A DNA stretch of 64,000 bases from positions 1,614 through 65,613 of the forward strand of contig CBDUQU010000001.1 in the NCBI GenBank assembly GCA_965369445.1, in the 5' to 3' direction. The stretch comes from an uncultured bacterium. Lineage in GTDB: Bacteria; Zixibacteria; MSB-5A5; SM1-73. The notes beneath the pieces were generated by a model. The model ran no database searches. It was not told the DNA's origin and was given only the letters and a program-made list of their open reading frames with translations. Positions 20,896-34,451 of the stretch are shown piece by piece (position 1 is the stretch's first letter; the number at the start of each line of letters is the position of its first letter). Position numbers and translations under genes: made by a program.

Positions 20896-21912
20896 TCAGT
20901 CAGCCCCCTGGGGGCTAACATGACAAAATAGAGGTTTCACCACCGCGCCCAGGATAATGGGCAACAAAGCCGGGAAGAAAAGCCGAGAGGCCAAAGCAGA
21001 CAGGAAGAGCTTTCCTATGGGGACCTTAGCCTGGTGATGCTCTTTCCCCAACCTTCCGGTTGGTTCCGGCTCTGGTTTTTCCTTTATCTCCAGTTCTGTT
21101 TTGACGCTTAGTCCTAAACCCGGGGGAATCACTCTATGTTCAGAATTCAGTTCATGTCTCGCCTGGTCTGACGGAATGGAGACATTGCCTGACCAGTTTT
21201 TTAGATCCTCTTCTAAGTAGAAAGGTTCCAGTTGAACGATCCATCCCTTTCCGAATGGATCTTTGTTGATCAAGTCGGTATTGAAGTTGATCTCATAGTT
21301 GATTTTGACCAGCCGGCCACGAACGGGCACGAGAAGTTTGTGCATCTGCTTGTCGGAAGCCAGTATCCTGATAAACAGTCTTCCTTGTTCGACCCTGCTC
21401 TGGTGACAGGGTAAGTCGACGTAAAGGATGTCGCCCACCGATTCCCTGAACAGGTTGTTTACCCCCACCTTGACAGTGCCGTTCTCCTCTATCTTGGCCC
21501 AGATATACTTCTGATAATGCAGCAGGTCTGTCCTTCCGCTCTTTCGCTCCTGCAGGGCCTTTCTTAGCACTTGCGTTAATTGATCAGGGCTGAGAGGCTT
21601 GGGAACGTAGTTGGAAACGCCCAATCTCATCGCCTGGACCGCGGATTCCACTGACGGATATCCGGTTATCATTATCACCACCATATCCGGATGATTCTTT
21701 TTCACGATCCTCAGGACCTCCATCCCGTCGATCTCCGGCATTTTCCAGTCGGCGATGAGCACGTCATATTTATCCTCTTCCACTTTCTTGAGGGCTTCTC
21801 GTCCGTTCAGAGCAATTTGCACATTGTGTCCTGCTCGGCTCAATATCTTCCGGCAGCTATTGCAAACTATCTCCTCATCATCCACCACTAATACATTTGC
21901 TCGGTACGGCAT
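20896..21912 (-). CDS. REC domain, GcvH-like (glycine-cleavage H / lipoyl-like) domain, then a C-terminal membrane anchor
   Basis: REC domain at the N-terminus. The central KYIWAKIEENGTVKVGVNNLFRESVGDILYVDLP...LINKDPFGKGWIVQL matches the GcvH pattern (E.G...VGITD.A...LGDIVFVELP ... DPYGEGWL). The C-terminal tail is ASRLFFPALLPIILGAVV. Confidence 0.6.
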   Translation of the reverse strand: MPYRANVLVVDDEEIVCNSCRKILSRAGHNVQIALNGREALKKVEEDKYDVLIADWKMPEIDGMEVLRIVKKNHPDMVVIMITGYPSVESAVQAMRLGVSNYVPKPLSPDQLTQVLRKALQERKSGRTDLLHYQKYIWAKIEENGTVKVGVNNLFRESVGDILYVDLPCHQSRVEQGRLFIRILASDKQMHKLLVPVRGRLVKINYEINFNTDLINKDPFGKGWIVQLEPFYLEEDLKNWSGNVSIPSDQARHELNSEHRVIPPGLGLSVKTELEIKEKPEPEPTGRLGKEHHQAKVPIGKLFLSALASRLFFPALLPIILGAVVKPLFCHVSPQGAD

Positions 21913-23048
21913 CTCCTATCACCTGCCTTTCTGTTCTTTCCGCTTCTCCTATAGCGCAAGAGATGTGCCGATTGTGACTTTTTTCACAAAGATTCGCCAA
22001 GCCTTTCAGTTAATGGCTTGAAATATAAGAGCTTATGTTTCGTGCCGAAGAACGAGGATGGGTGTATTCTGCAGATTCAGCCGAGTTGGTGCATGTCAAA
22101 GTTATGCACCGAAATCAGAGGGTTTTGTTGAGATACAAAGACTTAGGAGGAATTCGCGGTGTATAGGAAAAATATATAGTGAATACGTTTCATATACGTT
22201 TTTAGCACGTAGGTCCGAAATCCTCCGCCTCGGGCAGCGATTTCAGACATGATAAACTTCCCTCCCTCGATGGTTCGACAAGCTCACCACAAGTGGGAGG
22301 GAATAAAAGGGAGGGTGAAATGAGGTATTCTCTCGTTGGTAACGGACACCTTGTCCGTTACCCTTCAACTTCGTTCCCTTCGGGTCTGCCCAGACGGATC
22401 CGTAGGACAGCCTGCTTGACAGTTTCTCTTGTAGCCGCAGACTTCAGTCTGCGGGGGCGGATGGCGGGGGGCTCACAGGGTGATTGTCGGGCACCCCAAC
22501 GGCCCTTCGACAAGCTCAGGGCGGGATCGCCCTACAGGCCCATCCGGGCACCCCAACCCGCAAGTCTGGACTTGCTGGACATACTGGACTTGCTGGACTT
22601 TGTTTTTGGTTTTTTTTATGGTTCGAAGTCCGGGGTCGAGATAGAAGATCGTTATCCCGGAGGGGGGCGTTGGCCCCTGGCTGGGTTTTGGTGTTTGTGA
22701 ACCCGACGGCGGAGAGGGACCGACCCACCGGGTGACAAGTGAGCCGGTTTTCTTTGGAGTTGGTATGAAGCAGATGATTCATATGATTCTTATCCTCCCG
22801 AAAGTTACGGCTCATACAATAAACAATCGTCTCCTCAATAATACTGGAGCAATCTCTTTCACCATCAAAGTTCTTTTGAATTTGGTCTTTGTGGTAAGAG
22901 AGACACGCATTGGCGGTCTTTTTGTCCCCCTGAGAAGGGGTTCACCCTGAAGGGGGAAATCGAAGATCCGTAGAACAGGGGGTTATTGTATTTCTCCCCC
23001 TGATAAGGGGGACACAGGGGGTTCCATGTTGATTTCGTACCATTTTCC

Positions 23049-23077
23049 TTGACTTCTACAGGTCTGCGAGCTATAAT
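23049..23077 (+). promoter_or_regulatory. consensus sigma-70 promoter TTGACT-N17-TATAAT upstream of hsdM
   Basis: TTGACT at 23049-23054, a 17-nt spacer, TATAAT at 23072-23077; about 180 nt upstream of the hsdM ATG. Confidence 0.6.
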
Positions 23078-23257
23078 ATTCGTTGTCAAGAGAGCTTATA
23101 TCTGCAGGAGGCAGGGCTGGGCATACCGGCTCTGGGCTTGGACTACACGGGCCACAGTCATTCGTCACTCACGGCGCTCAAAGCCATGTTCAGACTGCTA
23201 TACGGATCAAAATAAACATAGTCAGCCACCAAGAGTGACGCAAACGTAGGGAAACAC

Positions 23258-24712
23258 ATGTTCGAGCAGACCTTCAAAAACATCGACGATGTGCTCTGGA
23301 AGGAGGCGGGGTGTTCGTCCGAGCTGGACTATACGGAACAATCCTCCTGGATGCTGTTCCTCAAATACCTCGATGACCTGGAGCAGGAACGGGCCATGCG
23401 CGCGAAATTGCGAGGCAAGTCCTACGAGTTCCTCCTGGAAAAACGCTTCCGGTGGTCCAGTTGGGCCGCGCCAAAAAACCGCGCCGGAGAGTTTGACCAC
23501 GACAAGGCGCTTACCGGCGACGACCTCATCGACTTCGTCAACCGTGAGCTCTTTCCCTACCTCCAGGGCTTCAAGCAGCGCGCCGCCAGCCCCGACACCA
23601 TCGAGTACAAGATTGGCGAGATCTTTGGCGAGATCAAGAGCAAATTCCAGAGCGGCTACAGCCTGCGGGACACGCTGGAACTGATGGACGCCCTGCGCTT
23701 CCGTTCGCAGAAGGAAAAGCACGAGCTGTCCCACCTTTACGAAGCCAAGATCAGGAACATGGGCAATGCCGGCCGCAACGGCGGCGAGTACTACACCCCC
23801 CGTCCGCTGATTCGCGCTATGGTCCGGGTGATCAAACCCAAGATCGGCGAGCGGATATATGACGGGGCTTGCGGTTCGGCGGGCTTCCTGTGCGAGTCCC
23901 ACGACTACCTGCGCAAGGGCAAACTGACCACCAGCCAACTCAAGAAACTCCAGACCAAGACCTTCTATGGAAAAGAGAAGAAGAGCCTGGCCTACGTCAT
24001 CGCCATCATGAACATGATCCTGCACGGCATCGACGCTCCCAACATCCTCCACACCAACACCCTGTCCGAGAACATCATGGACATCCAGGAGAAGGACCGC
24101 TTCAACGTCATCCTCGCCAATCCGCCCTTCGGCGGCAAAGAGCGCAAGGAAGTCCAGCAGAACTTTCCCATCAAGACCAGCGAAACCGCCTTCCTCTTCC
24201 TCCAGCACTTCATCAAATCGCTCAAGGCCGGCGGCCGCGCGGCGGTGGTCATCAAGAACACCTTCCTCTCCAACTCCGACAACGCCTCCCGCGCCCTGCG
24301 TCAGGAGCTGCTCGAAAACTGCAACCTCCATACTATTCTCGACTGCCCCGGCGGCACCTTCCTCGGGGCGGGCGTGAAGACCGTAGTGCTATTCTTCGAG
24401 AAGGGCGCGCCCACACGGAAAACATGGTACTACCAACTCAATCCCGGCCGGAGCCTGGGCAAGACCAACCCGCTCAACGACGACGACCTCAAGGAGTTCG
24501 TGAAACTGCAGGCCAAGTTCAAGGATTCTGAGCAGTCCTGGACCGTGAACATTGCCGACGTGGATCAGGAGACCTTCGACCTCTCCGTCAAGAACCCCAA
24601 CACGCCGGAGGAAGCCCCGCTTCGCGAACCACGGGAAATCGTCGAGGAGATGGCCGCGCTGGATGCCGAGAGCGCCAAGATCCTTGATGGGATTCGGGGG
24701 ATGCTGCGGTGA
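23258..24712 (+). CDS. hsdM: Type I restriction-modification system DNA methyltransferase subunit
   Basis: N6-adenine methyltransferase motif IV NPPFG (ILANPPFGGKERKE) and the SAM-binding region (IYDGACGSAGFL); operon position before hsdS/hsdR. Confidence 0.9.
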   Translation: MFEQTFKNIDDVLWKEAGCSSELDYTEQSSWMLFLKYLDDLEQERAMRAKLRGKSYEFLLEKRFRWSSWAAPKNRAGEFDHDKALTGDDLIDFVNRELFPYLQGFKQRAASPDTIEYKIGEIFGEIKSKFQSGYSLRDTLELMDALRFRSQKEKHELSHLYEAKIRNMGNAGRNGGEYYTPRPLIRAMVRVIKPKIGERIYDGACGSAGFLCESHDYLRKGKLTTSQLKKLQTKTFYGKEKKSLAYVIAIMNMILHGIDAPNILHTNTLSENIMDIQEKDRFNVILANPPFGGKERKEVQQNFPIKTSETAFLFLQHFIKSLKAGGRAAVVIKNTFLSNSDNASRALRQELLENCNLHTILDCPGGTFLGAGVKTVVLFFEKGAPTRKTWYYQLNPGRSLGKTNPLNDDDLKEFVKLQAKFKDSEQSWTVNIADVDQETFDLSVKNPNTPEEAPLREPREIVEEMAALDAESAKILDGIRGMLR

Positions 24713-26031
24713 ACTGTCAATTCTCTACAAAACCACTGCGCGACCTTATAAAGGAGAATCCCAAGTCTACGCTTAAGGTTCGAGACTCGCTTGATACGGG
24801 TCGCTTTATTTTCTTAACTAGCGGGACAAAGACTCGGTATTCGAATGATTACTTGTGTGAAGAAGAGAACCTCTTTCTTGCTACCGGAGGAACCGCTCAC
24901 GTTGGCTACTTCAATGGACCGGCCGCATATTCAACGGACTGCTATTCGATAACAACGAAAGAAGGGCTTTCAACAAAACTCCTGTATTACTTTCTTCTGA
25001 GTCAGTTAAATTACATCAATGAGTCGCTGTTCAGGGGAGCAGCGCTAAAGCACCTACAAAAGCGGGCCTTCAAAGAACTTCCCGTTCCTGTCCCGCCAGA
25101 GGTTCTTCAGGAGCGGATCGTGGCGATCCTCGACGAGGCGTTTGCTGGTATCGCTACGGCGGTCGCCAATGCCGAGAAGAACCTCCCCAACGCGCGGGAG
25201 TTGTGGGCAGGTGCATTGGCCTCGGCGTGCTCCGGGGCACTTACCAAGGGCTGGAGGCCCAAGAATAGCGAGATTGAACCGGCTAAAGACCTGTTGTTAC
25301 GCGCAATCGCTCGACGGCACGAGCAGCGTAGAACTTCCGGTAGGCCCAAAGAACCGCAACCCCCAATTGCTGCTACAAAGACAACTATCCCCGATACGTG
25401 GGTGTGGGCATCTCCCGAACAGCTTTCGACACATATTGTCGATTGTCCGCACAGTACTCCGAGGTGGGCCGATGAAGGGCCCATCTGTATCCGCACGACG
25501 AATTTCAGACCGGGATATCTCGACCTAGGTTCGGTGAGATACGTTTCGGAAGTCGCCTACACCGAACGGGCAAGGCGGTTAGAACCGAAACCAGGGGATG
25601 TCTTATACAGCCGTGAAGGCGGGATCCTAGGTATCGCTTGCACCTTTCCCGATGGACTGAAAGCGTGCTTGGGACAGAGGATGATGCTCTTTCGCCTTGA
25701 CAATTGCGCAGTGCATCCTCGCTATTTCGCTTGCGTACTGAACTCACCTCACATCTTGACGATAGTGAATCGGTTAACAGCGGGAGCCGCTGCACCACAC
25801 ATAAACATACGAGACATAAGGACATTTCCGATCCCGCTTCCGCCGTTCTCTGAACAGCAACAAATCGTCACAGTTCTTGACACTGTGTGGACATCGATCC
25901 AGCGCCTTGAGCGGATCCAATTGCGGAAGCTGGACTTCCTCGCCGAACTCAAGCAATCCATTCTCCAGAAAGCCTTCTCTGGCGAACTCACCGCCAAACC
26001 CGACAAAGCCCTCGCGGAGGCCGGACTATGA
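24709..26031 (+). CDS. hsdS: Type I restriction-modification specificity subunit with two target-recognition domains
   Basis: Two variable target-recognition domains separated by conserved central and C-terminal helices (the latter LKQSILQKAFSGELT). ATGA overlaps with hsdM and hsdR. Confidence 0.85.
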   Translation: MNCQFSTKPLRDLIKENPKSTLKVRDSLDTGRFIFLTSGTKTRYSNDYLCEEENLFLATGGTAHVGYFNGPAAYSTDCYSITTKEGLSTKLLYYFLLSQLNYINESLFRGAALKHLQKRAFKELPVPVPPEVLQERIVAILDEAFAGIATAVANAEKNLPNARELWAGALASACSGALTKGWRPKNSEIEPAKDLLLRAIARRHEQRRTSGRPKEPQPPIAATKTTIPDTWVWASPEQLSTHIVDCPHSTPRWADEGPICIRTTNFRPGYLDLGSVRYVSEVAYTERARRLEPKPGDVLYSREGGILGIACTFPDGLKACLGQRMMLFRLDNCAVHPRYFACVLNSPHILTIVNRLTAGAAAPHINIRDIRTFPIPLPPFSEQQQIVTVLDTVWTSIQRLERIQLRKLDFLAELKQSILQKAFSGELTAKPDKALAEAGL

Positions 26032-28421
26032 ACGAAGCCGAAACCCGCGCTGAACTCATTGATCCCGCCCTGAAGGCTGCCGGTTGGGGCGTGGTGGAAG
26101 GCAGCCGCGTATGCCGTGAAGTCATCACCCTCGGCCGCCTGCAAGGCGCAGGGAAGCGTGCTCAGCAGGACATTGCCGACTACGTGCTGGTCTACCGGAA
26201 CCAGAAGCTGGCCGTCATCGAGGCCAAGCGCCGTGATTTGCCCGACACCGAAGGCGTGGCCCAGGCCAAAAAGTACGCCGAAAAACTCCAAGCGCGTTTC
26301 GCTTACTCCACCAATGGCGACGGGATCTACCAGATCGACATGAAAACCGGAGCCGAGAGGTATATCCCGCACTACCCATCCCCCGCCCAACTCTGGGCCG
26401 ACACCTTTGCCGAGGAGAACGTGTGGCGCAACCGTTTTGCCGAGGTTCCCTTCGAGGATAAGGGCGGCGCCTGGGAAGCCCGCTACTACCAGCACAATGC
26501 CATCAACCGCACATTGGAAGCCATCGCGGCAGGTAAACCGCGCATCCTGCTCACCATGGCCACCGGCACCGGTAAGACCTTCATCGCCTTCCAACTCGCC
26601 TGGAAACTTTTCCACAGCCGCTGGACGCTCGCCCGCGACGCCAAACGTCGACCCCGTGTCCTGTTCCTTGCCGACCGCAACATCCTTGCCGACCAGGCCT
26701 ACAACGCCTTCTCCGCCTTTCCCGAAGATGCGCTGGTGCGCATTGCGCCGGACGAGATCCGCAAGAAGGGCCGCGTACCGAAGAACGCCAGTATCTTCTT
26801 CACCATCTTTCAGACCTTCATGACCGGCGCCGATGAAGAAGGCAACCCCAGCCCCAACTTCGGCGACTATCCCCCGGACTTCTTTGACTTCATCGTCATT
26901 GACGAATGTCACCGCGGCGGCGCCAACGACGAGAGCAACTGGCGCGGCATCATGGAGTACTTCTCTCCGGCCCTGCAACTCGGCCTTACCGCCACTCCCA
27001 AGCGCAAGACCAACGCCGACACCTATGCCTACTTCGGCAAACCTGTCTACATCTATTCCCTGAGAGACGGCACCAACGACGGCTACCTCACGCCTTTCAA
27101 AGTCAAACAGATCGCCACCACTATCGACGAATACGTCTACACATCTGACGACCATGTCATCGAGGGCGAGGTAGAGGTAGGCCGGCGCTATACCGAGGAC
27201 GACTTCAACCGGGTGATTGAGATACAGGCCCGCGAAAAGTACCGCGTGAAGGTCTTCATGGACGCCATCGACCAGAGCCAGAAGACCCTCGTCTTCTGTG
27301 CCACCCAGGACCACGCCCTGGCGGTACGCAACCTGGTGAACCAAATCAAGGCCAGCGCCGAACCAAACTACTGCGTGCGGGTGACCGCCAACGACGGCGC
27401 CTTAGGTGACCAGCACCTGCGCACCTTCCAGGACAACGAGAAAACCATCCCCACCATACTGACCACTTCCCAGAAACTATCCACCGGTGTGGATGCCCGG
27501 AACATCCGCAACATAGTCCTGATGCGTCCCATCAATTCCATGATTGAGTTCAAGCAGATCATCGGGCGCGGCACCCGGCTCTTCGACGGCAAGGACTACT
27601 TCACCATCTACGACTTCGTAGAGGCATACAAACACTTCAACGACCCCGAATGGGATGGCGAACCGGTAGAGCCGGAACCGTGTGAGCGCTGCGGCAACAG
27701 TCCGTGCACCTGTGAAGTAGAACCACCCGAACCTTGTCCTGTATGTGGCGAGATTCCCTGTGAATGTGAGAAAGAACCGCCTGAGCCTTGCCCTGTCTGT
27801 GGTCAACGCCCTTGTATCTGCAAGAAGCGGACCAGAGTTAAGGTCAAACTGGCAGACGGCAAAGAACGCAGCATCCAACACATGATGGCAACAACCTTCT
27901 GGAGTCCGGACGGCAAGCCCATGTCCGCCGCCGAGTTCATCGAACGCCTGTTTGGCGACCTGCCCGAGCTTTTCAAAGACGAAAACGAACTCCGAAAGCT
28001 GTGGAGCCGCCCCGATACCCGCAAGGCGCTCCTTCAGGGTCTTGCAGAAAGAGGCTACGGCGATGAGCAACTCGCCGAGGTTCGCTCCATGATCGATGCC
28101 GACAAGAGCGATCTCTACGACGTACTGGCTTACGTCGCCTTTGCCCGCGCCCCCATCACCCGCGAGGAGCGGGTGAACACTCACAGAAATCTTATCTTCT
28201 CCCACTATGCGGACAAGCAGCAGGAGTTCCTCGACTTCGTCCTGGGTCACTACATCCAACAAGGAATTGGCGAACTCGATCAGGACAAATTACCCCATCT
28301 TCTTGAACTCAAATACCACGCCATCAGCGACGCCGTCGCGGCCCTGGGGAACGTGACAGACATCCGCGAGGTTTTTATAGGTTTTCAAAAGCACTTGTAC
28401 GTGCAGCAGCCAGCGGCTTGA
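26028..28421 (+). CDS. hsdR: Type I restriction enzyme R subunit (EcoEI-like, with HsdR C-terminal domain)
   Basis: Canonical N-terminus MNEAETRAELIDPALKAAGW; Walker A MATGTGKT; DEAH-type DECHR; helicase motif VI QIIGRGTR; C-terminal EcoEI_R_C-like region. Confidence 0.9.
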   Translation: MNEAETRAELIDPALKAAGWGVVEGSRVCREVITLGRLQGAGKRAQQDIADYVLVYRNQKLAVIEAKRRDLPDTEGVAQAKKYAEKLQARFAYSTNGDGIYQIDMKTGAERYIPHYPSPAQLWADTFAEENVWRNRFAEVPFEDKGGAWEARYYQHNAINRTLEAIAAGKPRILLTMATGTGKTFIAFQLAWKLFHSRWTLARDAKRRPRVLFLADRNILADQAYNAFSAFPEDALVRIAPDEIRKKGRVPKNASIFFTIFQTFMTGADEEGNPSPNFGDYPPDFFDFIVIDECHRGGANDESNWRGIMEYFSPALQLGLTATPKRKTNADTYAYFGKPVYIYSLRDGTNDGYLTPFKVKQIATTIDEYVYTSDDHVIEGEVEVGRRYTEDDFNRVIEIQAREKYRVKVFMDAIDQSQKTLVFCATQDHALAVRNLVNQIKASAEPNYCVRVTANDGALGDQHLRTFQDNEKTIPTILTTSQKLSTGVDARNIRNIVLMRPINSMIEFKQIIGRGTRLFDGKDYFTIYDFVEAYKHFNDPEWDGEPVEPEPCERCGNSPCTCEVEPPEPCPVCGEIPCECEKEPPEPCPVCGQRPCICKKRTRVKVKLADGKERSIQHMMATTFWSPDGKPMSAAEFIERLFGDLPELFKDENELRKLWSRPDTRKALLQGLAERGYGDEQLAEVRSMIDADKSDLYDVLAYVAFARAPITREERVNTHRNLIFSHYADKQQEFLDFVLGHYIQQGIGELDQDKLPHLLELKYHAISDAVAALGNVTDIREVFIGFQKHLYVQQPAA

Positions 28422-28655
28422 CCGGATGCAACCCCTCTTCTAACTGCTTTATCCGTTCTATCCCTTTAATCCGTTGACAGCTTCGGATGCCCCACCGCTT
28501 GCCACGCCCCTTTAATACCTACCGCCTATCCTCTCTTTCCACAAAGAGCAAATATACCCTAACTTCAATGGTGAAGAAGATAGCTCCACAGTGTATGGGA
28601 GAACCAATGTCTTTTGCATGCACAGAACCCCGCCTTAACGGAGAAGAAGAATCTC

Positions 28656-28880
28656 ATGAACCATATATTTGATACCGAGGATGAAGAACAGAGCTCCACG
28701 CAGTTGAAGTTCCTAAAAACCTTGATCGACAAGCTCATTAAAGGACGAAAACACCCAACGGGTGCTCCGCCATCCTCTCGGACGACCAACTACTTTTATG
28801 GTAAGCTTACGAACTACACTCAGAATACAGATTTAAACGTACATAATTCTTTGCCTGATAACTGCTTGGAGGCAAAGTGA
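28656..28880 (+). CDS. hypothetical small protein (74 aa) in the AT-rich spacer downstream of hsdR
   Basis: ATG at 28656 with GGAGAAGAAG upstream; no recognisable domain. The coding call rests only on the RBS and an open frame. Confidence 0.2.
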   Translation: MNHIFDTEDEEQSSTQLKFLKTLIDKLIKGRKHPTGAPPSSRTTNYFYGKLTNYTQNTDLNVHNSLPDNCLEAK

Positions 28881-29069
28881 GAAAAAAATTAAAAATACCA
28901 CCAGATGCACCAGAAGCGCCAGTTCCACCAGTCAAACATCTCCGCTTGCGGTGAATCCTTCAGATGAATCCGTTGCAGAAAGGATTTAGGTGTTCCTCCC
29001 TAGTATTTCACTTGACCCCCTGAATCCTCGACCCCTAGAACCCTTCCTGTCACGCTAACAGATCTCGGC

Positions 29070-30467
29070 CTATTTCTCTATCCTGATATTGTATTTTCGC
29101 ATCAAAGCCTGGAAGTTGGGCCTCAGCATACCCACTTCTTTGGCTGACTTAGTGATGTTCCAGTCGTTTCTCGTCAGCGCGTCTAAGATGAACGACTTCT
29201 CGACATTGCCGACGGCAGATTCTCTCAGTCGTCTCTTAGCTTCCTTCAGCTCTTCTGAAGTCTTTGGGATGAAGGTGTCCGGATGAGCCACCTCCGATCT
29301 GACCACAAAAGGGAGATGTTCTGTAGTAATGGTGTCCCCTTCGGCCATGACGATAGCCCGCTCTATCACATTCTCCAACTGCCTTACATTCCCGGGCCAG
29401 GTGTGGTCAATTAGCATGTTCATCGCCTCGACCGAGATGCTCTTTATCTTTTTCTTCATCTCCTGCCCGTATTTCTTGAGAAAATGATAAGCTAAGAGGG
29501 GAATATCGTCTTTTCTCTCCTTCAGCAGCGGTACCCTTATGCTAACTACATTCAGACGGTAGAATAGGTCCTCCCGGAATTTCTCATCCTCGACCAGTTT
29601 TTCTAAGTCTTTATTGGTGGCTACGATAAATCTCAAGTCCACCTTTTTGGACTTGACCTCCCCCACCGGGGTGAACTCCCTTTCCTGAATCACCCTCAGT
29701 AGCTTAGACTGGAAATTCTGGCTCGTGTCCCCGATCTCGTCTAAGAAGATCGAACCGCCGTTGGCTACCTCGAACAGCCCTGGTTTGGTTACTATTGCCC
29801 CGGTGAAGGATCCTTTAACGTGGCCGAAAAGTTCGGATTCTAAGAGTTCCTGAGCTAAGACTCCGCAGTCGACCGTTACAAAGGGTTTTTGTTTTCTGGG
29901 GCTGTTGAAATGGAGGGCGCGGGCGATCAACTCCTTGCCTGTGCCGCTTTCTCCCCGGATCAGAACCGTGCTGTCTGTTGGAGCGACCTTGCGAATCAGC
30001 TTATAGACCTCCTGCATCTTGGGGCTGCTGCCAATGATGTTGTCGAAACCATATTTGGCCTCCAGCTCCTTGCGCAGGTAGATATTCTCAATTATCAGGC
30101 TTTTTTTTTCCAGAGCCTTTTCAACCACAATCAAGACTTCGTCCGGGGTAAAGGGCTTGGGAATGTAATCAAACGCCCCTAATTTCATCGCCTGGACGGC
30201 GGACTGGACGGTGGAGTAACCGGTAATCATAATCACCGCGATATCGGGGTACTTTTCCTTGACTTTTTCCAAAACCTGAATCCCGCCGATTCCCGGCATC
30301 TTCATGTCGGTGATTACGATGTCGATTGGCTCTTTTTCCAGGAGGTCAAAAGCTCCCTGACCGGAAAGGACGGTAAGAACATCGTGGCCGCCGCCTTCCA
30401 GTATCTTCCGGCAGCTCCTTAACACGATCTCCTCATCGTCCACCACCAGTATTCTGGCTTTAATCAT
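29070..30467 (-). CDS. sigma-54-dependent response regulator (NtrC/Fis family: REC, AAA+, HTH)
   Basis: REC domain (ILVVDDEE...DMKMPGIGG); Walker A GESGTGKE; the GAFTGA-type sigma-54 contact loop (KGSFTGA); C-terminal Fis HTH. Confidence 0.9.
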
Positions 30468-32057
30468 CTATATGTTCCCCTTCTTTCCAATTTCAGCGAC
30501 TTTCTCTTTTATGGGCAACTTCACTGTGAAGGTGGAGCCCTTTCCCACCCTGCTTTTCACCTCCAATTTTCCCCGGTGCCTTTCCACTATGCCGTAGCTC
30601 ACCGAAAGCCCCAGTCCGGTCCCGCTACCTTGCTCCTTGGTGGTATAAAAAGGGTCCAGTATCTTGGGCAAATTCTCTTTCGGGATTCCAACGCCGGTAT
30701 CGGTGAATCGGACAGCCACCATCTTATCTTCCCTGGCTGAAGACACGGTCAAATTTCCCCCCTCGGGCATGGCCTCGATAGCATTGAGTAGGATATTGAT
30801 GAATACCTGTTGAATCTGTCCCACATCCACTGATATCTTGGGCAAACCCGGAGCGATCTTCTTCTCAATCTTGACGTTCTGCAGGCTCGCCTGGTGAGCA
30901 ATCAGATTTGTCGATTTCTCCACCACCTCGTTTATGTCGGTCAACGTCTTTTGGGGGGCAGTTTGTCGGGCAAAGTCTAAGAGGCCCTTGACGATGTTCT
31001 TGCACCTGTTGGTTTCGTTTACGATAACCTCCAAATCCTCCCTGTCTGGGTCTCCATCTGGTTTGGCCTGGAGTAATAGTGAGGAGTAGGTCAGAATTCC
31101 GGTTAAGGGGCTATTGATCTCGTGAGCAACCCCGGCAGCCAATTTACCCAGGGAGGCAACCTTGTCCGACTTAATCAGTTGATCCTCGGTCTTTCTCAGC
31201 TCTTCCGTCCTCTCTGCCACCCTCTGCTCCAGGGTCTTCCCCCAGTCGACGAGTTTTTCATCTGCCTTTTTTAAATCTGAGGTCATCTGATTGAACGAAG
31301 AAGCCAGCTGTGCTATCTCGTCTTCGCCTTTAATCGGCGTGGAACAATTCAAGTCGCCTTCAGCGACTCTTCTGGTTCCTTTGACCAATTCTCTCACCGG
31401 ACGGGTAACATACCGGTTGATGGAGATGCTGATGGTCACCGCGATGATCAGGCAGGCAATCACGGCAAAGAAGATCATCTTATTCTGGGCGCCCTTGATA
31501 TCCCTGTCCACATCCGCCAAGGACATCCCGATGTCCAGTACCCCCAAGACCTTTTGGTCCGGAGGATGGGCATGGCAGTCCGGGGTATAGCAATCAGGTT
31601 CGTTATATATGGGAGAGATGACCCCCAATACTCTATGGCCTGCCTTGCCTTGGAAAATCCGGGAGCGGTCAGGCGTTGTGAGTCTTTCTAAGGGTTTTTC
31701 TGCGGAATGACAAGCATAGCAGGCTTCCGCTTTCTTGTCCACCATTTCTCCGATCTCGCTCTTATCAGTCGAGAACATTATCTTGCCATCTTTATTGAAA
31801 ACCCTGATCTTTTCCAGTCCCTCCTGCTCCCCGATGGTCTCGATGATCTCATGCACATCGTCACTCTGGTATCTCAGCATATCATATCGGGTGCTTCTTC
31901 TCACCGTCTCGCTTATCCTCAAAGCGCCCCGCATTACCTCACCGGTTAAGTGTTTCTTCTGAGAGGCGATGTTGAGGTAGGCATAGATTGCCATGGACGT
32001 TATCAGTATGAATCCAACCACTGAAATCAGCTTTGCTCCAATGCTCTTCCGCCACAT
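30468..32057 (-). CDS. sensor histidine kinase with a periplasmic domain carrying c-type heme-binding motifs
   Basis: Two TM helices (aa 10-30 and about 197-217) flank a roughly 165-aa periplasmic domain containing CYACH (CxxCH) and CYTPDCH (Cx4CH). HAMP, HisKA (HEINSPL) and HATPase_c (GTGLGLS) follow. 1-bp junction with the regulator gene. Confidence 0.85.
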   Translation of the reverse strand: MWRKSIGAKLISVVGFILITSMAIYAYLNIASQKKHLTGEVMRGALRISETVRRSTRYDMLRYQSDDVHEIIETIGEQEGLEKIRVFNKDGKIMFSTDKSEIGEMVDKKAEACYACHSAEKPLERLTTPDRSRIFQGKAGHRVLGVISPIYNEPDCYTPDCHAHPPDQKVLGVLDIGMSLADVDRDIKGAQNKMIFFAVIACLIIAVTISISINRYVTRPVRELVKGTRRVAEGDLNCSTPIKGEDEIAQLASSFNQMTSDLKKADEKLVDWGKTLEQRVAERTEELRKTEDQLIKSDKVASLGKLAAGVAHEINSPLTGILTYSSLLLQAKPDGDPDREDLEVIVNETNRCKNIVKGLLDFARQTAPQKTLTDINEVVEKSTNLIAHQASLQNVKIEKKIAPGLPKISVDVGQIQQVFINILLNAIEAMPEGGNLTVSSAREDKMVAVRFTDTGVGIPKENLPKILDPFYTTKEQGSGTGLGLSVSYGIVERHRGKLEVKSRVGKGSTFTVKLPIKEKVAEIGKKGNI

Positions 32058-32231
32058 AGGCGCTCCCTCAATTAGTGAATTATTTCACAAGCTTCCACCA
32101 GTTATACGGAAATTTGAAACCCAAAAGCTAACTCCAAAAGGCAACTGCTTTGTTAGGGGGTTCGCGCCACGGATGAACCGGGACGTGAAGACACCATTCG
32201 CATTTCATAATGCCTAACCCTGCTCTTGTTT

Positions 32232-33488
32232 CTAAGCCCCCTTGTTCATCATCCCGAGGAATGAGGAGCGAAGCACGTCACTCATAAGGGCCTTCTTCAC
32301 CGGCGCCAACCTCAGAAATCCGCCGATGAAACCACGCATGAACGAGTGGGTAATGCTCTGGGGGTTGTCAAACATTAGGTTTTGCAGCGTGCCTCTCTCC
32401 AGGCATTGGAGAATCACCCGTTCAAAGGTGTCCTCCGGATGGAACACTCTTTGCTTGCGCTTCACCAGTTTCAGCGCGCCGGTCGGACATTTCAGGGCAC
32501 ACACGCCGCAACCAATACACAGAGATGTGTCTATCCCTGGATTTCCTTCGGGAAGCATCCGGATGGCATCGATGGGGCAGGATTCCGCACACATCCCACA
32601 ATCTGTACATTTCTCCTCGTCACGTTCAGGGATGAAAGAGGAAGTGACGACCATACTTGTATAGCCGAACTTGCTTATACCTAACAGGACGTTGCAGCAA
32701 CACTCACAGCAGTGACAGATAAAAGAGATTCCTTGTTTCACATTATCAGCGCAGAACACCAGCCCCATCTCTTTAGAGCGGGCCAGGTTTTCCAGCATCT
32801 CCGCTTTGGAAACCTCTTTCCCCAGGTTGTGCCGGATCAGGTAATCAGCCGCGGCATCGAAAGAGGAGCAGGTCTCCAGCGGCACGTCGCACTTCTTCTC
32901 CCCCACGTGCATTTTCTCGTGACGACAGGAACAGATGCCGATGGAGAATTTCTTGGCCCCTTCGATGATCGCCGTCGCCTTTTCGTAATCTAAGACTTCA
33001 ACATATCCTGAAGTATCTATCGCATCCTCGTGTGGCAGCGTCCGCAAGGGAGAGATTTTTTCACCATGTTTGAAGTTTGCCGCATAAAACGTCGACTCAT
33101 CTTGTAGATAAGTGTGAAAAAGTCTGGCCCATTCTTTGGTGTTCAGGTTTTCACCTGTTCTCATCATGGTGAATTCAAATATTCCAACGACCAGCGGGGA
33201 AGGCATGTAGTGATATTCACCATGCATCCAGAGGTCCATCACCAGGCCCTTGGCACACAGGCCGTCCAGTAGCTTCTGCAGCTTGGAGCGGTCGTACTTG
33301 GTGATTTTCTCAATTCGATTTAGATTGGCCAGGCCGTAAGGCATCTTCACGATAACATCGGCTTCGTCTGTGGAATAGAGTTCCTTCAGAATGGAATGAA
33401 ACGTTTCATTCCACGGCGTCCTCATCGTCAAGTTATCGATCTTCTTACCGAGCTTTCGGTAGATGTCCTTCCCAACCATGTGTCCCAT
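32232..33488 (-). CDS. 4Fe-4S cluster-binding protein with a large uncharacterised N-terminal domain
   Basis: Cys-rich CSCRHEKMH, ICHCCECCCN and two ferredoxin CxxCxxCxxxCP motifs (CTDCGMCAESCP; CIGCGVCALKCP). First gene of the operon with the kinase and regulator. Confidence 0.65.
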   Translation of the reverse strand: MGHMVGKDIYRKLGKKIDNLTMRTPWNETFHSILKELYSTDEADVIVKMPYGLANLNRIEKITKYDRSKLQKLLDGLCAKGLVMDLWMHGEYHYMPSPLVVGIFEFTMMRTGENLNTKEWARLFHTYLQDESTFYAANFKHGEKISPLRTLPHEDAIDTSGYVEVLDYEKATAIIEGAKKFSIGICSCRHEKMHVGEKKCDVPLETCSSFDAAADYLIRHNLGKEVSKAEMLENLARSKEMGLVFCADNVKQGISFICHCCECCCNVLLGISKFGYTSMVVTSSFIPERDEEKCTDCGMCAESCPIDAIRMLPEGNPGIDTSLCIGCGVCALKCPTGALKLVKRKQRVFHPEDTFERVILQCLERGTLQNLMFDNPQSITHSFMRGFIGGFLRLAPVKKALMSDVLRSSFLGMMNKGA

Positions 33489-33673: not shown

Positions 33674-33751
<78 letters not shown>

Positions 33752-33851
33752 ACGCTCTTGCCGCTCACGGTCCGCAGTCCACTGTCCGCGGCTCCATCTG
33801 TCGTCTTTCTGCCGTGAACTATCAACCGTGTACCGTGTACCAGCAAACGCT

Positions 33852-33925
33852 CGCGCCTAGAGGGACTCGAACCCCCAACCCTCTGATCCGAAGTCAGATG
33901 CTCTATCCAATTGAGCTATAGGCGC
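33852..33925 (-). tRNA. tRNA-Arg (anticodon TCG)
   Basis: The reverse complement GCGCCTATAGCTCAATTGGATAGAGCATCTGACTTCGGATCAGAGGGTTGGGGGTTCGAGTCCCTCTAGGCGCG has a 7-bp acceptor stem, a D-arm, anticodon loop CTTCGGA and a T-arm GGGGG/TTCGAGT/CCCTC. Confidence 0.7.
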
Positions 33926-34451
33926 ATAAGCTCCAATTTCGCAAAAGAATATACGAGCTTCGATCTATCGAGTCAACAGAAAACTTCCCTCCTAATACCA
34001 GTCACCCAAAAGATGTCAGCGTTTAATCTCAGGGTAACGATTCCCTATACGAGAGGGCTGACCCAGTGTTTGCCTGCTGTCGAGCTGGGGAGGGCTCGGA
34101 GTGTCTTAGTGGGGCACTGTCCCTAGCGGCACTCGCGGGGATCGCTTCCCGCACCCGCCCGGCCCGCTGAAAATCAACTCTTTCGCTCTTTTTTGGGAGA
34201 AACATACCGAATAACTGGCGTCCGGCGCGTACTGCGCCGATAACGAAATAGACGCTGCAGGGAGTGTCAACTAGAACCATTGCAGGCTCACGATGGTATA
34301 AGCAATATTGACGCCGCGTGTTGAGCGGTGATCACACTGACTCTTCTGTTGGCGGTGAGGTTATCCTGTCACCGTCCTGATCACGCGAAGAGAACTAAAA
34401 CCTTCACCTCTCAACGGACCTCCAGAGGATCTGTTCACCAGAAGGATCGGC

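Follow-up and report, generated by a model that had tools for sequence, protein, structure and literature searches.

The restriction subunit HsdR of a Type I restriction-modification system, encoded in a 64,000-nucleotide stretch of DNA from an uncultured Zixibacteria bacterium (GCA_965369445.1, contig CBDUQU010000001.1, positions 1,614 to 65,613; hereafter the window), carries three short units of four cysteines each (Cys4 units) in the tether that, by sequence position, joins its motor to its C-terminal EcoEI_R_C domain. As a variant of the Type IB HsdR tether, this Cys4 array is real and widespread, is under strong selection and has so far gone unannotated. It is neither universal nor lineage-specific; what is new is that across the family a hypervariable tether is found in two common, interchangeable states, as an acidic disordered linker or as one to five strictly conserved Cys4 mini-units. 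Our best reading, to which we give a probability of about one half, is that the units are autonomous Zn(Cys)4 beads that would structure a dispensable tether.

The cysteine array and the enzyme that carries it

The array and its setting within hsdR are as follows, with amino acid (aa) numbers referring to HsdR.

26028..28421, plus strand: hsdR, 797 aa, EcoAI/FtnUII (Type IB) family
27660..27839, plus strand: variable tether, aa 545-604, from the end of RecA-like domain 2 (DPEWDG, aa 539-544) to the basic strand VKVKLADGK (aa 604-612)
27681..27713, plus strand: Cys4 unit 1, CERCGNSPCTC, aa 552-562 (C552, C555, C560, C562)
27735..27767, plus strand: Cys4 unit 2, CPVCGEIPCEC, aa 570-580 (C570, C573, C578, C580)
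27789..27821, plus strand: Cys4 unit 3, CPVCGQRPCIC, aa 588-598 (C588, C591, C596, C598)
27933..28400, plus strand: EcoEI_R_C domain, aa 636-791 (Pfam PF08463, E 2.9e-31), the presumed methyltransferase-docking helical domain

At the array the translation reads ...DPEWDGEPV EPEPCERCGNSPCTCEV EPPEPCPVCGEIPCECEK EPPEPCPVCGQRPCICKK RTRVKVKLADGK..., and the segment between DPEWDG and VKVKLADGK is EPV-EPEPCERCGNSPCTCEV-EPPEPCPVCGEIPCECEK-EPPEPCPVCGQRPCICKK-RTR. The core of each unit spans 11 residues, has the form C-x2-C-G-x2-P-C-x-C and is set off from the next by a short, Glu/Pro-rich spacer (EPPEP). The initial annotation of this DNA had described three repeats of 51 nucleotides (nt) and 17 aa from position 27668, with four cysteines apiece in a CxxC...CxC arrangement; three units are indeed present and the arrangement holds in all of them, the first half, CPxCG, being a canonical zinc knuckle, but the repeats start at 27669 and measure 17, 18 and 18 residues (51, 54 and 54 nt, 27669-27827). 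Twelve of the 16 cysteines of HsdR lie within a single 47-residue stretch (25% Cys), and in a six-frame search of the window the pattern C..C....C.C falls in an open reading frame (ORF) at these three sites only, the one other match having a stop codon. This lack of other ORF matches, the clustering of the cysteines and their invariance among homologues, described below, together indicate that the motif is more than chance.

The enzyme around the array belongs to the EcoAI/FtnUII (Type IB) family. It scores 826.6 bits over aa 1-791 against the NCBIfam equivalog NF046051 (EcoAI/FtnUII family type I restriction subunit R), for which the cut-off is 550, has Pfam matches to HSDR_N, ResIII/DEAD, Helicase_C and EcoEI_R_C, and adjoins hsdM and hsdS, all of which bears out the original assignment of the gene as a Type I HsdR. 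Like the EcoAI/EcoEI (Type IB) HsdR proteins that NF046051 describes, it combines a nuclease, a superfamily 2 (SF2) motor, a long variable tether and an EcoEI_R_C domain, encoded in an hsdM-hsdS-hsdR operon. The PD-(D/E)xK nuclease motif, read from the translation, is D51, E65 and K67; SF2 motif I lies at aa 178-184 (GTGKT at aa 180-184), motif II is DECH at aa 292-295, and motif VI is QIIGRGTR at aa 510-517, which, with EcoEI_R_C at aa 636-791, places the array between motif VI and the C-terminal domain, just where it had been placed at first. The match to Protein Data Bank (PDB) entry 3h1t, a crystallised fragment from the N terminus of the HsdR of Vibrio vulnificus, covers residues 1-547 (E 7.7e-132) and breaks off just short of the first Cys4 unit. 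Docking of HsdR on the methyltransferase core has been ascribed to HsdR C-terminal regions (PMC2777439). From its sequence, the hsd system at this locus looks intact and conventional, and the enzyme looks like an ordinary Type IB restriction subunit.

Two tether states and selection on the units

How widely is the array shared? Two sets of homologues bear on this question: a joint alignment of 202 relatives, a sample biased towards relatives of the query HsdR, and a family-wide set drawn from an exhaustive search of 50%-identity cluster representatives, of which 82 are readable through the tether. Nearly all of the best 120 database homologues (74-87% identical) have such an array at the same place, and Cys4 arrays also occur there in many genomes of Gammaproteobacteria, Desulfobacterota, Nitrospirota, Acidobacteriota, Planctomycetota and Verrucomicrobiota (including Akkermansia muciniphila), as well as in Bifidobacterium, Legionella and one Escherichia coli strain (ET82). 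In the joint alignment, tethers with 0, 2, 3, 4 and 5 units number 37, 2, 145, 17 and 1, respectively, i.e. 165 of the 202 relatives have two to five units. Among the family representatives, 70 of 82 have no unit and 12 have one to five, including arrays with Gly-rich spacers and one HsdR with a single unit (P0139). The insert had been regarded at first as something other than a standard HsdR feature. That description suits the 70 representatives and the classical E. coli EcoAI-like HsdR (L083), whose tether is long, strongly acidic and Cys-free where the present enzyme has three Cys4 units; it does not suit the 165 near relatives, which span many phyla. The alignment of homologues proposed at the same time, with an eye to lineage-specificity and copy number, has thus given its answer: copy number runs from 1 to 5, and the array is a feature neither of the whole family nor of one lineage.

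The 37 Cys-free tethers are found mainly in cyanobacteria and Alphaproteobacteria, with some lying amid close relatives that have Cys-rich ones. Their sequences are acidic, Pro/Gly-rich, of low complexity and unrelated to one another; for example, the HsdR of a Syntrophaceae bacterium, 80% identical to the query, has the Cys-free tether EPPIKDPPLPPEPPEPPLPPEPPEPPEPP. On a neighbour-joining tree built with the linker columns left out, there are at least 14 switches between Cys4 and Cys-free tethers, a count that is approximate because the tree is simple and the genes are horizontally mobile. One tether (L045), in which two units are followed by a low-complexity tail, looks intermediate. At least 14 replacements by Cys-free disordered linkers argue against an indispensable regulatory function for the units. 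Across homologues the flanks of the tether are invariant and its interior is hypervariable; the mean side-chain net charge is -4.2 for Cys-free linkers and -0.2 for Cys-rich linkers.

Two further observations concern the tether and the genes around it. In the family representatives P0182, P0189, P0213, P0214 and P0243, a longer insert of about 100 residues that is not of low complexity stands at the same tether position (e.g. ...GRVVDSESGAPLVDAVVTVQLGPNQ...), and the tether looks prone to insertion in general. In E. coli ET82 (L082, NZ_CP101005.1, 2155-4008), the one E. coli genome whose HsdR has three Cys4 units, a DUF262 gene lies between hsdS and hsdR.

Within the arrays, conservation is sharply focused. 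Not one of the 12 cysteines varies, either in 74 aligned homologues or in the 145 homologues with three units. Next come the Gly that follows the second Cys (86-95% conserved) and the Pro that precedes the third (91-98%), and the other positions of the unit vary widely. In 46 genes compared, TGT and TGC both occur at every one of the 12 Cys codons, and such toggling at invariant residues means that it is the amino acid, rather than the nucleotide sequence, that is selected. Within units the spacing is fixed (x2/x4/x1), and between them it can be anything from 1 to 10 residues; no partial unit was found in the homologue linkers, where the Cys count is always a multiple of four, plus occasional extras. 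Conserved Cys, Gly and Pro, together with fixed intra-unit and variable inter-unit spacing, are what one expects of small, self-contained units whose function depends on four thiols and a tight turn. Nor does a unit need a partner, since P0139 has a single one, as have most of the phage proteins considered below. Several lineages (e.g. P0031, P0048, L041, L050, L054 and L078) have a fifth Cys just after the conserved Gly, giving C-x2-C-G-C-x-P-C-x-C, or have CDC for CGx.

It had also been proposed that the repeat number could vary by slippage. Taken further, this idea makes the array a contingency tract, i.e. a nucleotide tandem repeat whose copy number shifts by slipped-strand mispairing, with HsdR function varying within a population as a result. 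Copy number does vary, from 1 to 5 among homologues, but the DNA speaks against slippage as the means. Tandem Repeats Finder reports no repeat over 27400-28100, and the near-identical head-to-tail DNA copies of a slippage-prone (phase-variable) tandem repeat are not found: aligned codon by codon, whole units agree at 36/54, 30/54 and 27/54 positions, the unit cores of this hsdR are 52-61% identical with a longest common exact word of 8 nt, and units 2 and 3, with 14 residues in common, use different codons at nine of them. The same holds in 46 other three-unit genes, within which the 33-nt cores have a mean identity of 60% (range 49-71%). There is no concerted evolution either: at non-Cys positions, units at the same array position in different species are 46% identical, and neighbours in the same protein 34%. 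The low DNA identity between units and the greater likeness of orthologous positions thus point to an old triplication that has not been homogenised, variation by slippage is not supported, and the contingency-tract explanation is effectively refuted.

Putative zinc sites and competing explanations

What, then, might the units do? Metal binding is probable, and one metal per unit, in a structural role, is what we infer. We hypothesize that each 11-residue unit is a self-contained tetrathiolate site that would bind, most likely, one Zn2+ through its four cysteines: the CPxCG zinc knuckle would give two ligands, and a tight G-x-x-P turn would return the C-x-C pair for the other two. Three such beads and their EPPEP spacers would then form the tether from RecA-like domain 2 to EcoEI_R_C, the end that would dock HsdR on the M2S methyltransferase, so that part of an acidic and otherwise disordered tether would become small knots, compact, negatively charged and resistant to proteases. 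The beads would set the effective length and stiffness of the tether and take no part in catalytic or translocation chemistry. Disordered linkers have often replaced the beads, which suggests that beads are dispensable for catalysis and tune how long, how stiff and how proteolysis-resistant the tether is; in evolution, a disordered linker that is simply acidic and rich in proline can stand in for them. Charge may be part of this exchange. By standard coordination chemistry each [Zn(Cys)4] centre carries a charge of 2-, and three such centres would add about -6 to the near-neutral (-0.2) tether, matching the acidic Cys-free tethers (-4.2).

Comparison with known zinc sites accounts for half of the unit. 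A profile of 50 units searched against the PDB finds that the CPxCG half alone matches the knuckles of Nop10, L32, L37e, RPA12, rubredoxins and C2H2 fingers; in the HsdR unit, the fourth ligand lies within the unit, in contrast to rubredoxin and zinc-ribbon sites, which have a second knuckle. The retroviral-type zinc knuckle (CX2CX4HX4C, zf-CCHC) shares the C-x2-C-G start and a third ligand four residues on, but in the HsdR unit that third ligand is Cys instead of His and the fourth follows after one residue instead of four; with its spacing of C-x2-C-x4-C-x1-C, the HsdR tether gives no match to the zf-CCHC profile (PF00098). Zinc-ribbon matches to the tether in Pfam are sub-threshold only (zf-FPG_IleRS 18.3 bits, cut-off 21.3), as is that of zf-CCHC_5 to a phage array (15 bits), and no model in Pfam or NCBIfam covers the Cys4 unit in the tether or phage arrays. 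A literature search found no paper with the spacing of the unit or with zinc or cysteine motifs in HsdR.

The closest precedent for the position is E. coli RadD (PDB 6JDE, 7R7J), which has a related SF2 motor (NCBIfam RadD 2.5e-24; PDB E 1.7e-14) and in which RecA-like domain 2 is followed at once by a tandem pair of zinc-binding Cys4 elements (PMC9049331). Its tandem sites occupy the same topological place, between motor and C-terminal domain, and RadD thus sets a precedent for zinc at this joint. The sites themselves differ: those of RadD are zinc ribbons, in which two CxxC knuckles 10-40 residues apart sit on beta-hairpins, whereas the HsdR units, of pattern CxxC-x4-CxC, take up 11 residues each, come in varying copy number and have Pro/Glu spacers between them.

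Other proteins with short periodic Cys motifs that hold zinc through thiolates and combine CxC with CxxC pairs, i.e. DnaJ (CxxCxGxG, four copies), metallothioneins and Hsp33 (CxC...CxxC), are alike in that respect only, and a profile search detects no DnaJ, metallothionein or Hsp33 family. In DnaJ, distant repeats pair into two fixed sites in a folded domain, in contrast to HsdR units, which look autonomous and free in copy number; moreover, CxxCGxxPCxC differs from CxxCxGxG and no DnaJ_CXXCXGXG match is obtained, and a DnaJ cysteine-rich domain was rejected. Hsp33 has a single site spanning about 35 residues. Metallothioneins form multi-metal clusters, and the segment in question lies inside an enzyme of 797 aa, as a linker with strictly periodic units that occur singly in other proteins, so a metallothionein was set aside as well. 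A 4Fe-4S role was rejected on the grounds that the spacing is unlike CxxCxxC...CP motifs and that each unit is autonomous.

Structure prediction adds a little. AlphaFold2, run on a 105-residue fragment, gives a predicted local distance difference test (pLDDT) score of 66-77 over the units and 49-59 in the flanks, with no regular secondary structure and no hairpins, a result compatible with small metal loops modelled without metal. The full-length prediction (74 close homologues) is poor (mean pLDDT 61, predicted template modelling score 0.40) and unusable for placing the tether.

The unit also extends beyond HsdR. A degenerate DNA pattern for CPxCGxxPCxC is found in at least 120 viral contigs, and a permuted control with the same codons in 100; among the matches listed, 70 of 122 fall within ORFs that, read from stop to stop, have 300 aa or more, compared with 5 of 93 for the control. 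A word-indexed protein search with a synthetic consensus array as the query, which gave 3 candidates, found nothing. The viral carriers (loci L084-L203) are unrelated: among them are tape-measure proteins of phage tails, a protease-major-head fusion that has the unit in the linker between its domains, a viral HsdR with two units, a protein of 963 aa with four, and large proteins of unknown function. Example loci are these.

L093, 10158-13196, minus strand: CPxCGxxPCxC carrier
L097, 3555-7154, plus strand: CPxCGxxPCxC carrier
L104, 4957-6852, minus strand: CPxCGxxPCxC carrier
L156, 541-3429, minus strand: CPxCGxxPCxC carrier
L189: CPxCGxxPCxC carrier

The 20 residues on either side of the viral units are enriched in D, E and K, and with such flanks and such unrelated carriers, the Cys4 unit behaves as a portable mini-module of charged linkers. 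The L156 protein, which has four Cys4 units, also has a rubredoxin-like domain downstream, at residues 497-525 (Pfam RUBY_RBDX 4.4e-09).

These data allow three other explanations of the units to be weighed, each of which the evidence disfavours, to different degrees. Cys4 zinc sites are known redox sensors (Hsp33, RsrA), and, with the CxC...CxxC zinc centre of Hsp33 as the model, oxidation or zinc loss at the beads could alter the tether and tune or shut off restriction under oxidative or DNA-damaging stress (restriction alleviation). By position the units fall where the motor is coupled to the methyltransferase core, and their strict conservation suggests more than a spacer role. We nevertheless consider such a switch unlikely: at least 14 replacements by Cys-free linkers have occurred among close relatives and most of the family does without units, anaerobes and aerobes both carry them in no obvious pattern, and CPxCGxxPCxC is found in phage virion proteins, in which regulation of this kind makes little sense.

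Could the units instead be zinc knuckles that contact DNA during loading, translocation or cleavage, as is proposed for the tandem zinc fingers of RadD and RecQ and known for the retroviral CCHC knuckles? Their first three ligands have the retroviral spacing (C-x2-C-x4-C/H, with Gly after the second Cys), the tandem elements of RadD stand at the same position, and a basic stretch, KKRTRVKVK, follows unit 3. This stretch, however, is part of the C-terminal region and is present in Cys-free relatives too; the variable positions of the units are mostly acidic or neutral and poorly conserved, and thus offer no conserved basic or aromatic surface; and the units are interchangeable with linkers that are strongly acidic. 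A role in nucleic-acid binding is, in our estimation, distinctly unlikely.

We judge equally improbable a scheme in which the metal is coordinated across units or across chains, be it by rubredoxin- or zinc-ribbon-like pairing, in a metallothionein- or DnaJ-like cluster, or as a zinc-hook-like HsdR-HsdR or HsdR-HsdM bridge, such that the array would be one small domain or serve in assembly. In its favour, a consecutive pair of CPVCG knuckles is matched by phmmer to the knuckle pairs of rubrerythrin and of Rpb12, the 25% Cys content of the 47-residue stretch is metallothionein-like, and Type I enzymes contain two R subunits between which a bridge might form. A fixed multi-unit fold nonetheless fits less well than self-contained units with copy numbers of 1, 2, 3, 4 and 5 that all occur, with inter-unit distances of 1-10 residues beside a fixed intra-unit spacing, and with single units that are common in other proteins.

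Several points weigh against autonomous zinc beads. Adjacent CPxCG knuckles are 14 residues apart, as they are in rubrerythrin and Rpb12, which makes cross-unit coordination sterically possible. In sequence searches of the PDB (phmmer and profile), no solved chain matches the PCxC half or the whole unit; the confidence of AlphaFold2 on the fragment is moderate only, and a Foldseek search of the fragment model against the PDB, with no match of E below 4, is uninformative. The switch count is, as noted above, approximate, and the homologue sample leans towards relatives of the query. Finally, a purely structural bead leaves unexplained why units are strictly retained in most of the clade when close relatives do without them.

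We would go one step further, if with the odds somewhat against us, and suggest that CPxCGxxPCxC may be an undescribed minimal autonomous tetrathiolate fold, a portable staple set singly or in arrays into charged disordered linkers of unrelated bacterial and phage proteins, through which the reach and stiffness of the HsdR tether might become metal- and redox-dependent. If zinc binding is true, the units would be among the smallest autonomous metal-binding modules, and close relatives with and without beads would amount to a natural experiment on tether mechanics in a DNA-translocating restriction enzyme. The units in phage tape-measure and capsid-linker proteins suggest a general linker-stapling device that is not specific to restriction. 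For this particular hsd locus, the practical consequence is small.

The hsd locus and its surroundings

The genes hsdM, hsdS and hsdR form a compact plus-strand operon in which hsdS overlaps the hsdM stop and the hsdR start. The remaining genes of the operon and those downstream of hsdR are the following.

23258..24712, plus strand: hsdM, N6-adenine methyltransferase subunit (Pfam N6_Mtase 1.1e-64, HsdM_N 2.6e-08)
24709..26031, plus strand: hsdS, specificity subunit (Pfam Methylase_S 3.3e-27, two stretches)
29070-30467, minus strand: sigma-54-dependent response regulator, downstream of hsdR
30468-32057, minus strand: HAMP histidine kinase, downstream of hsdR
32232-33488, minus strand: protein with two 4Fe-4S ferredoxin motifs, downstream of hsdR

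The genes at 29070-33488 look like ordinary chromosomal genes unrelated to the tether array. Two antisense ORFs lie under hsdR on the minus strand, at 27477-28262 (261 aa) and 25749-27344 (531 aa); both have TTG starts and no Pfam match, and most likely they are by-products of G+C content and not genes. The hsd operon (23000-28000) has a G+C content of 55-62%, above the value of about 50% in its flanks (21000-23000 and 28000-31000), which suggests horizontal acquisition of the restriction system. About 5 kb downstream of the operon are two tRNA genes on the minus strand, tRNA-Glu (33674-33751) and tRNA-Arg (33851-33926).

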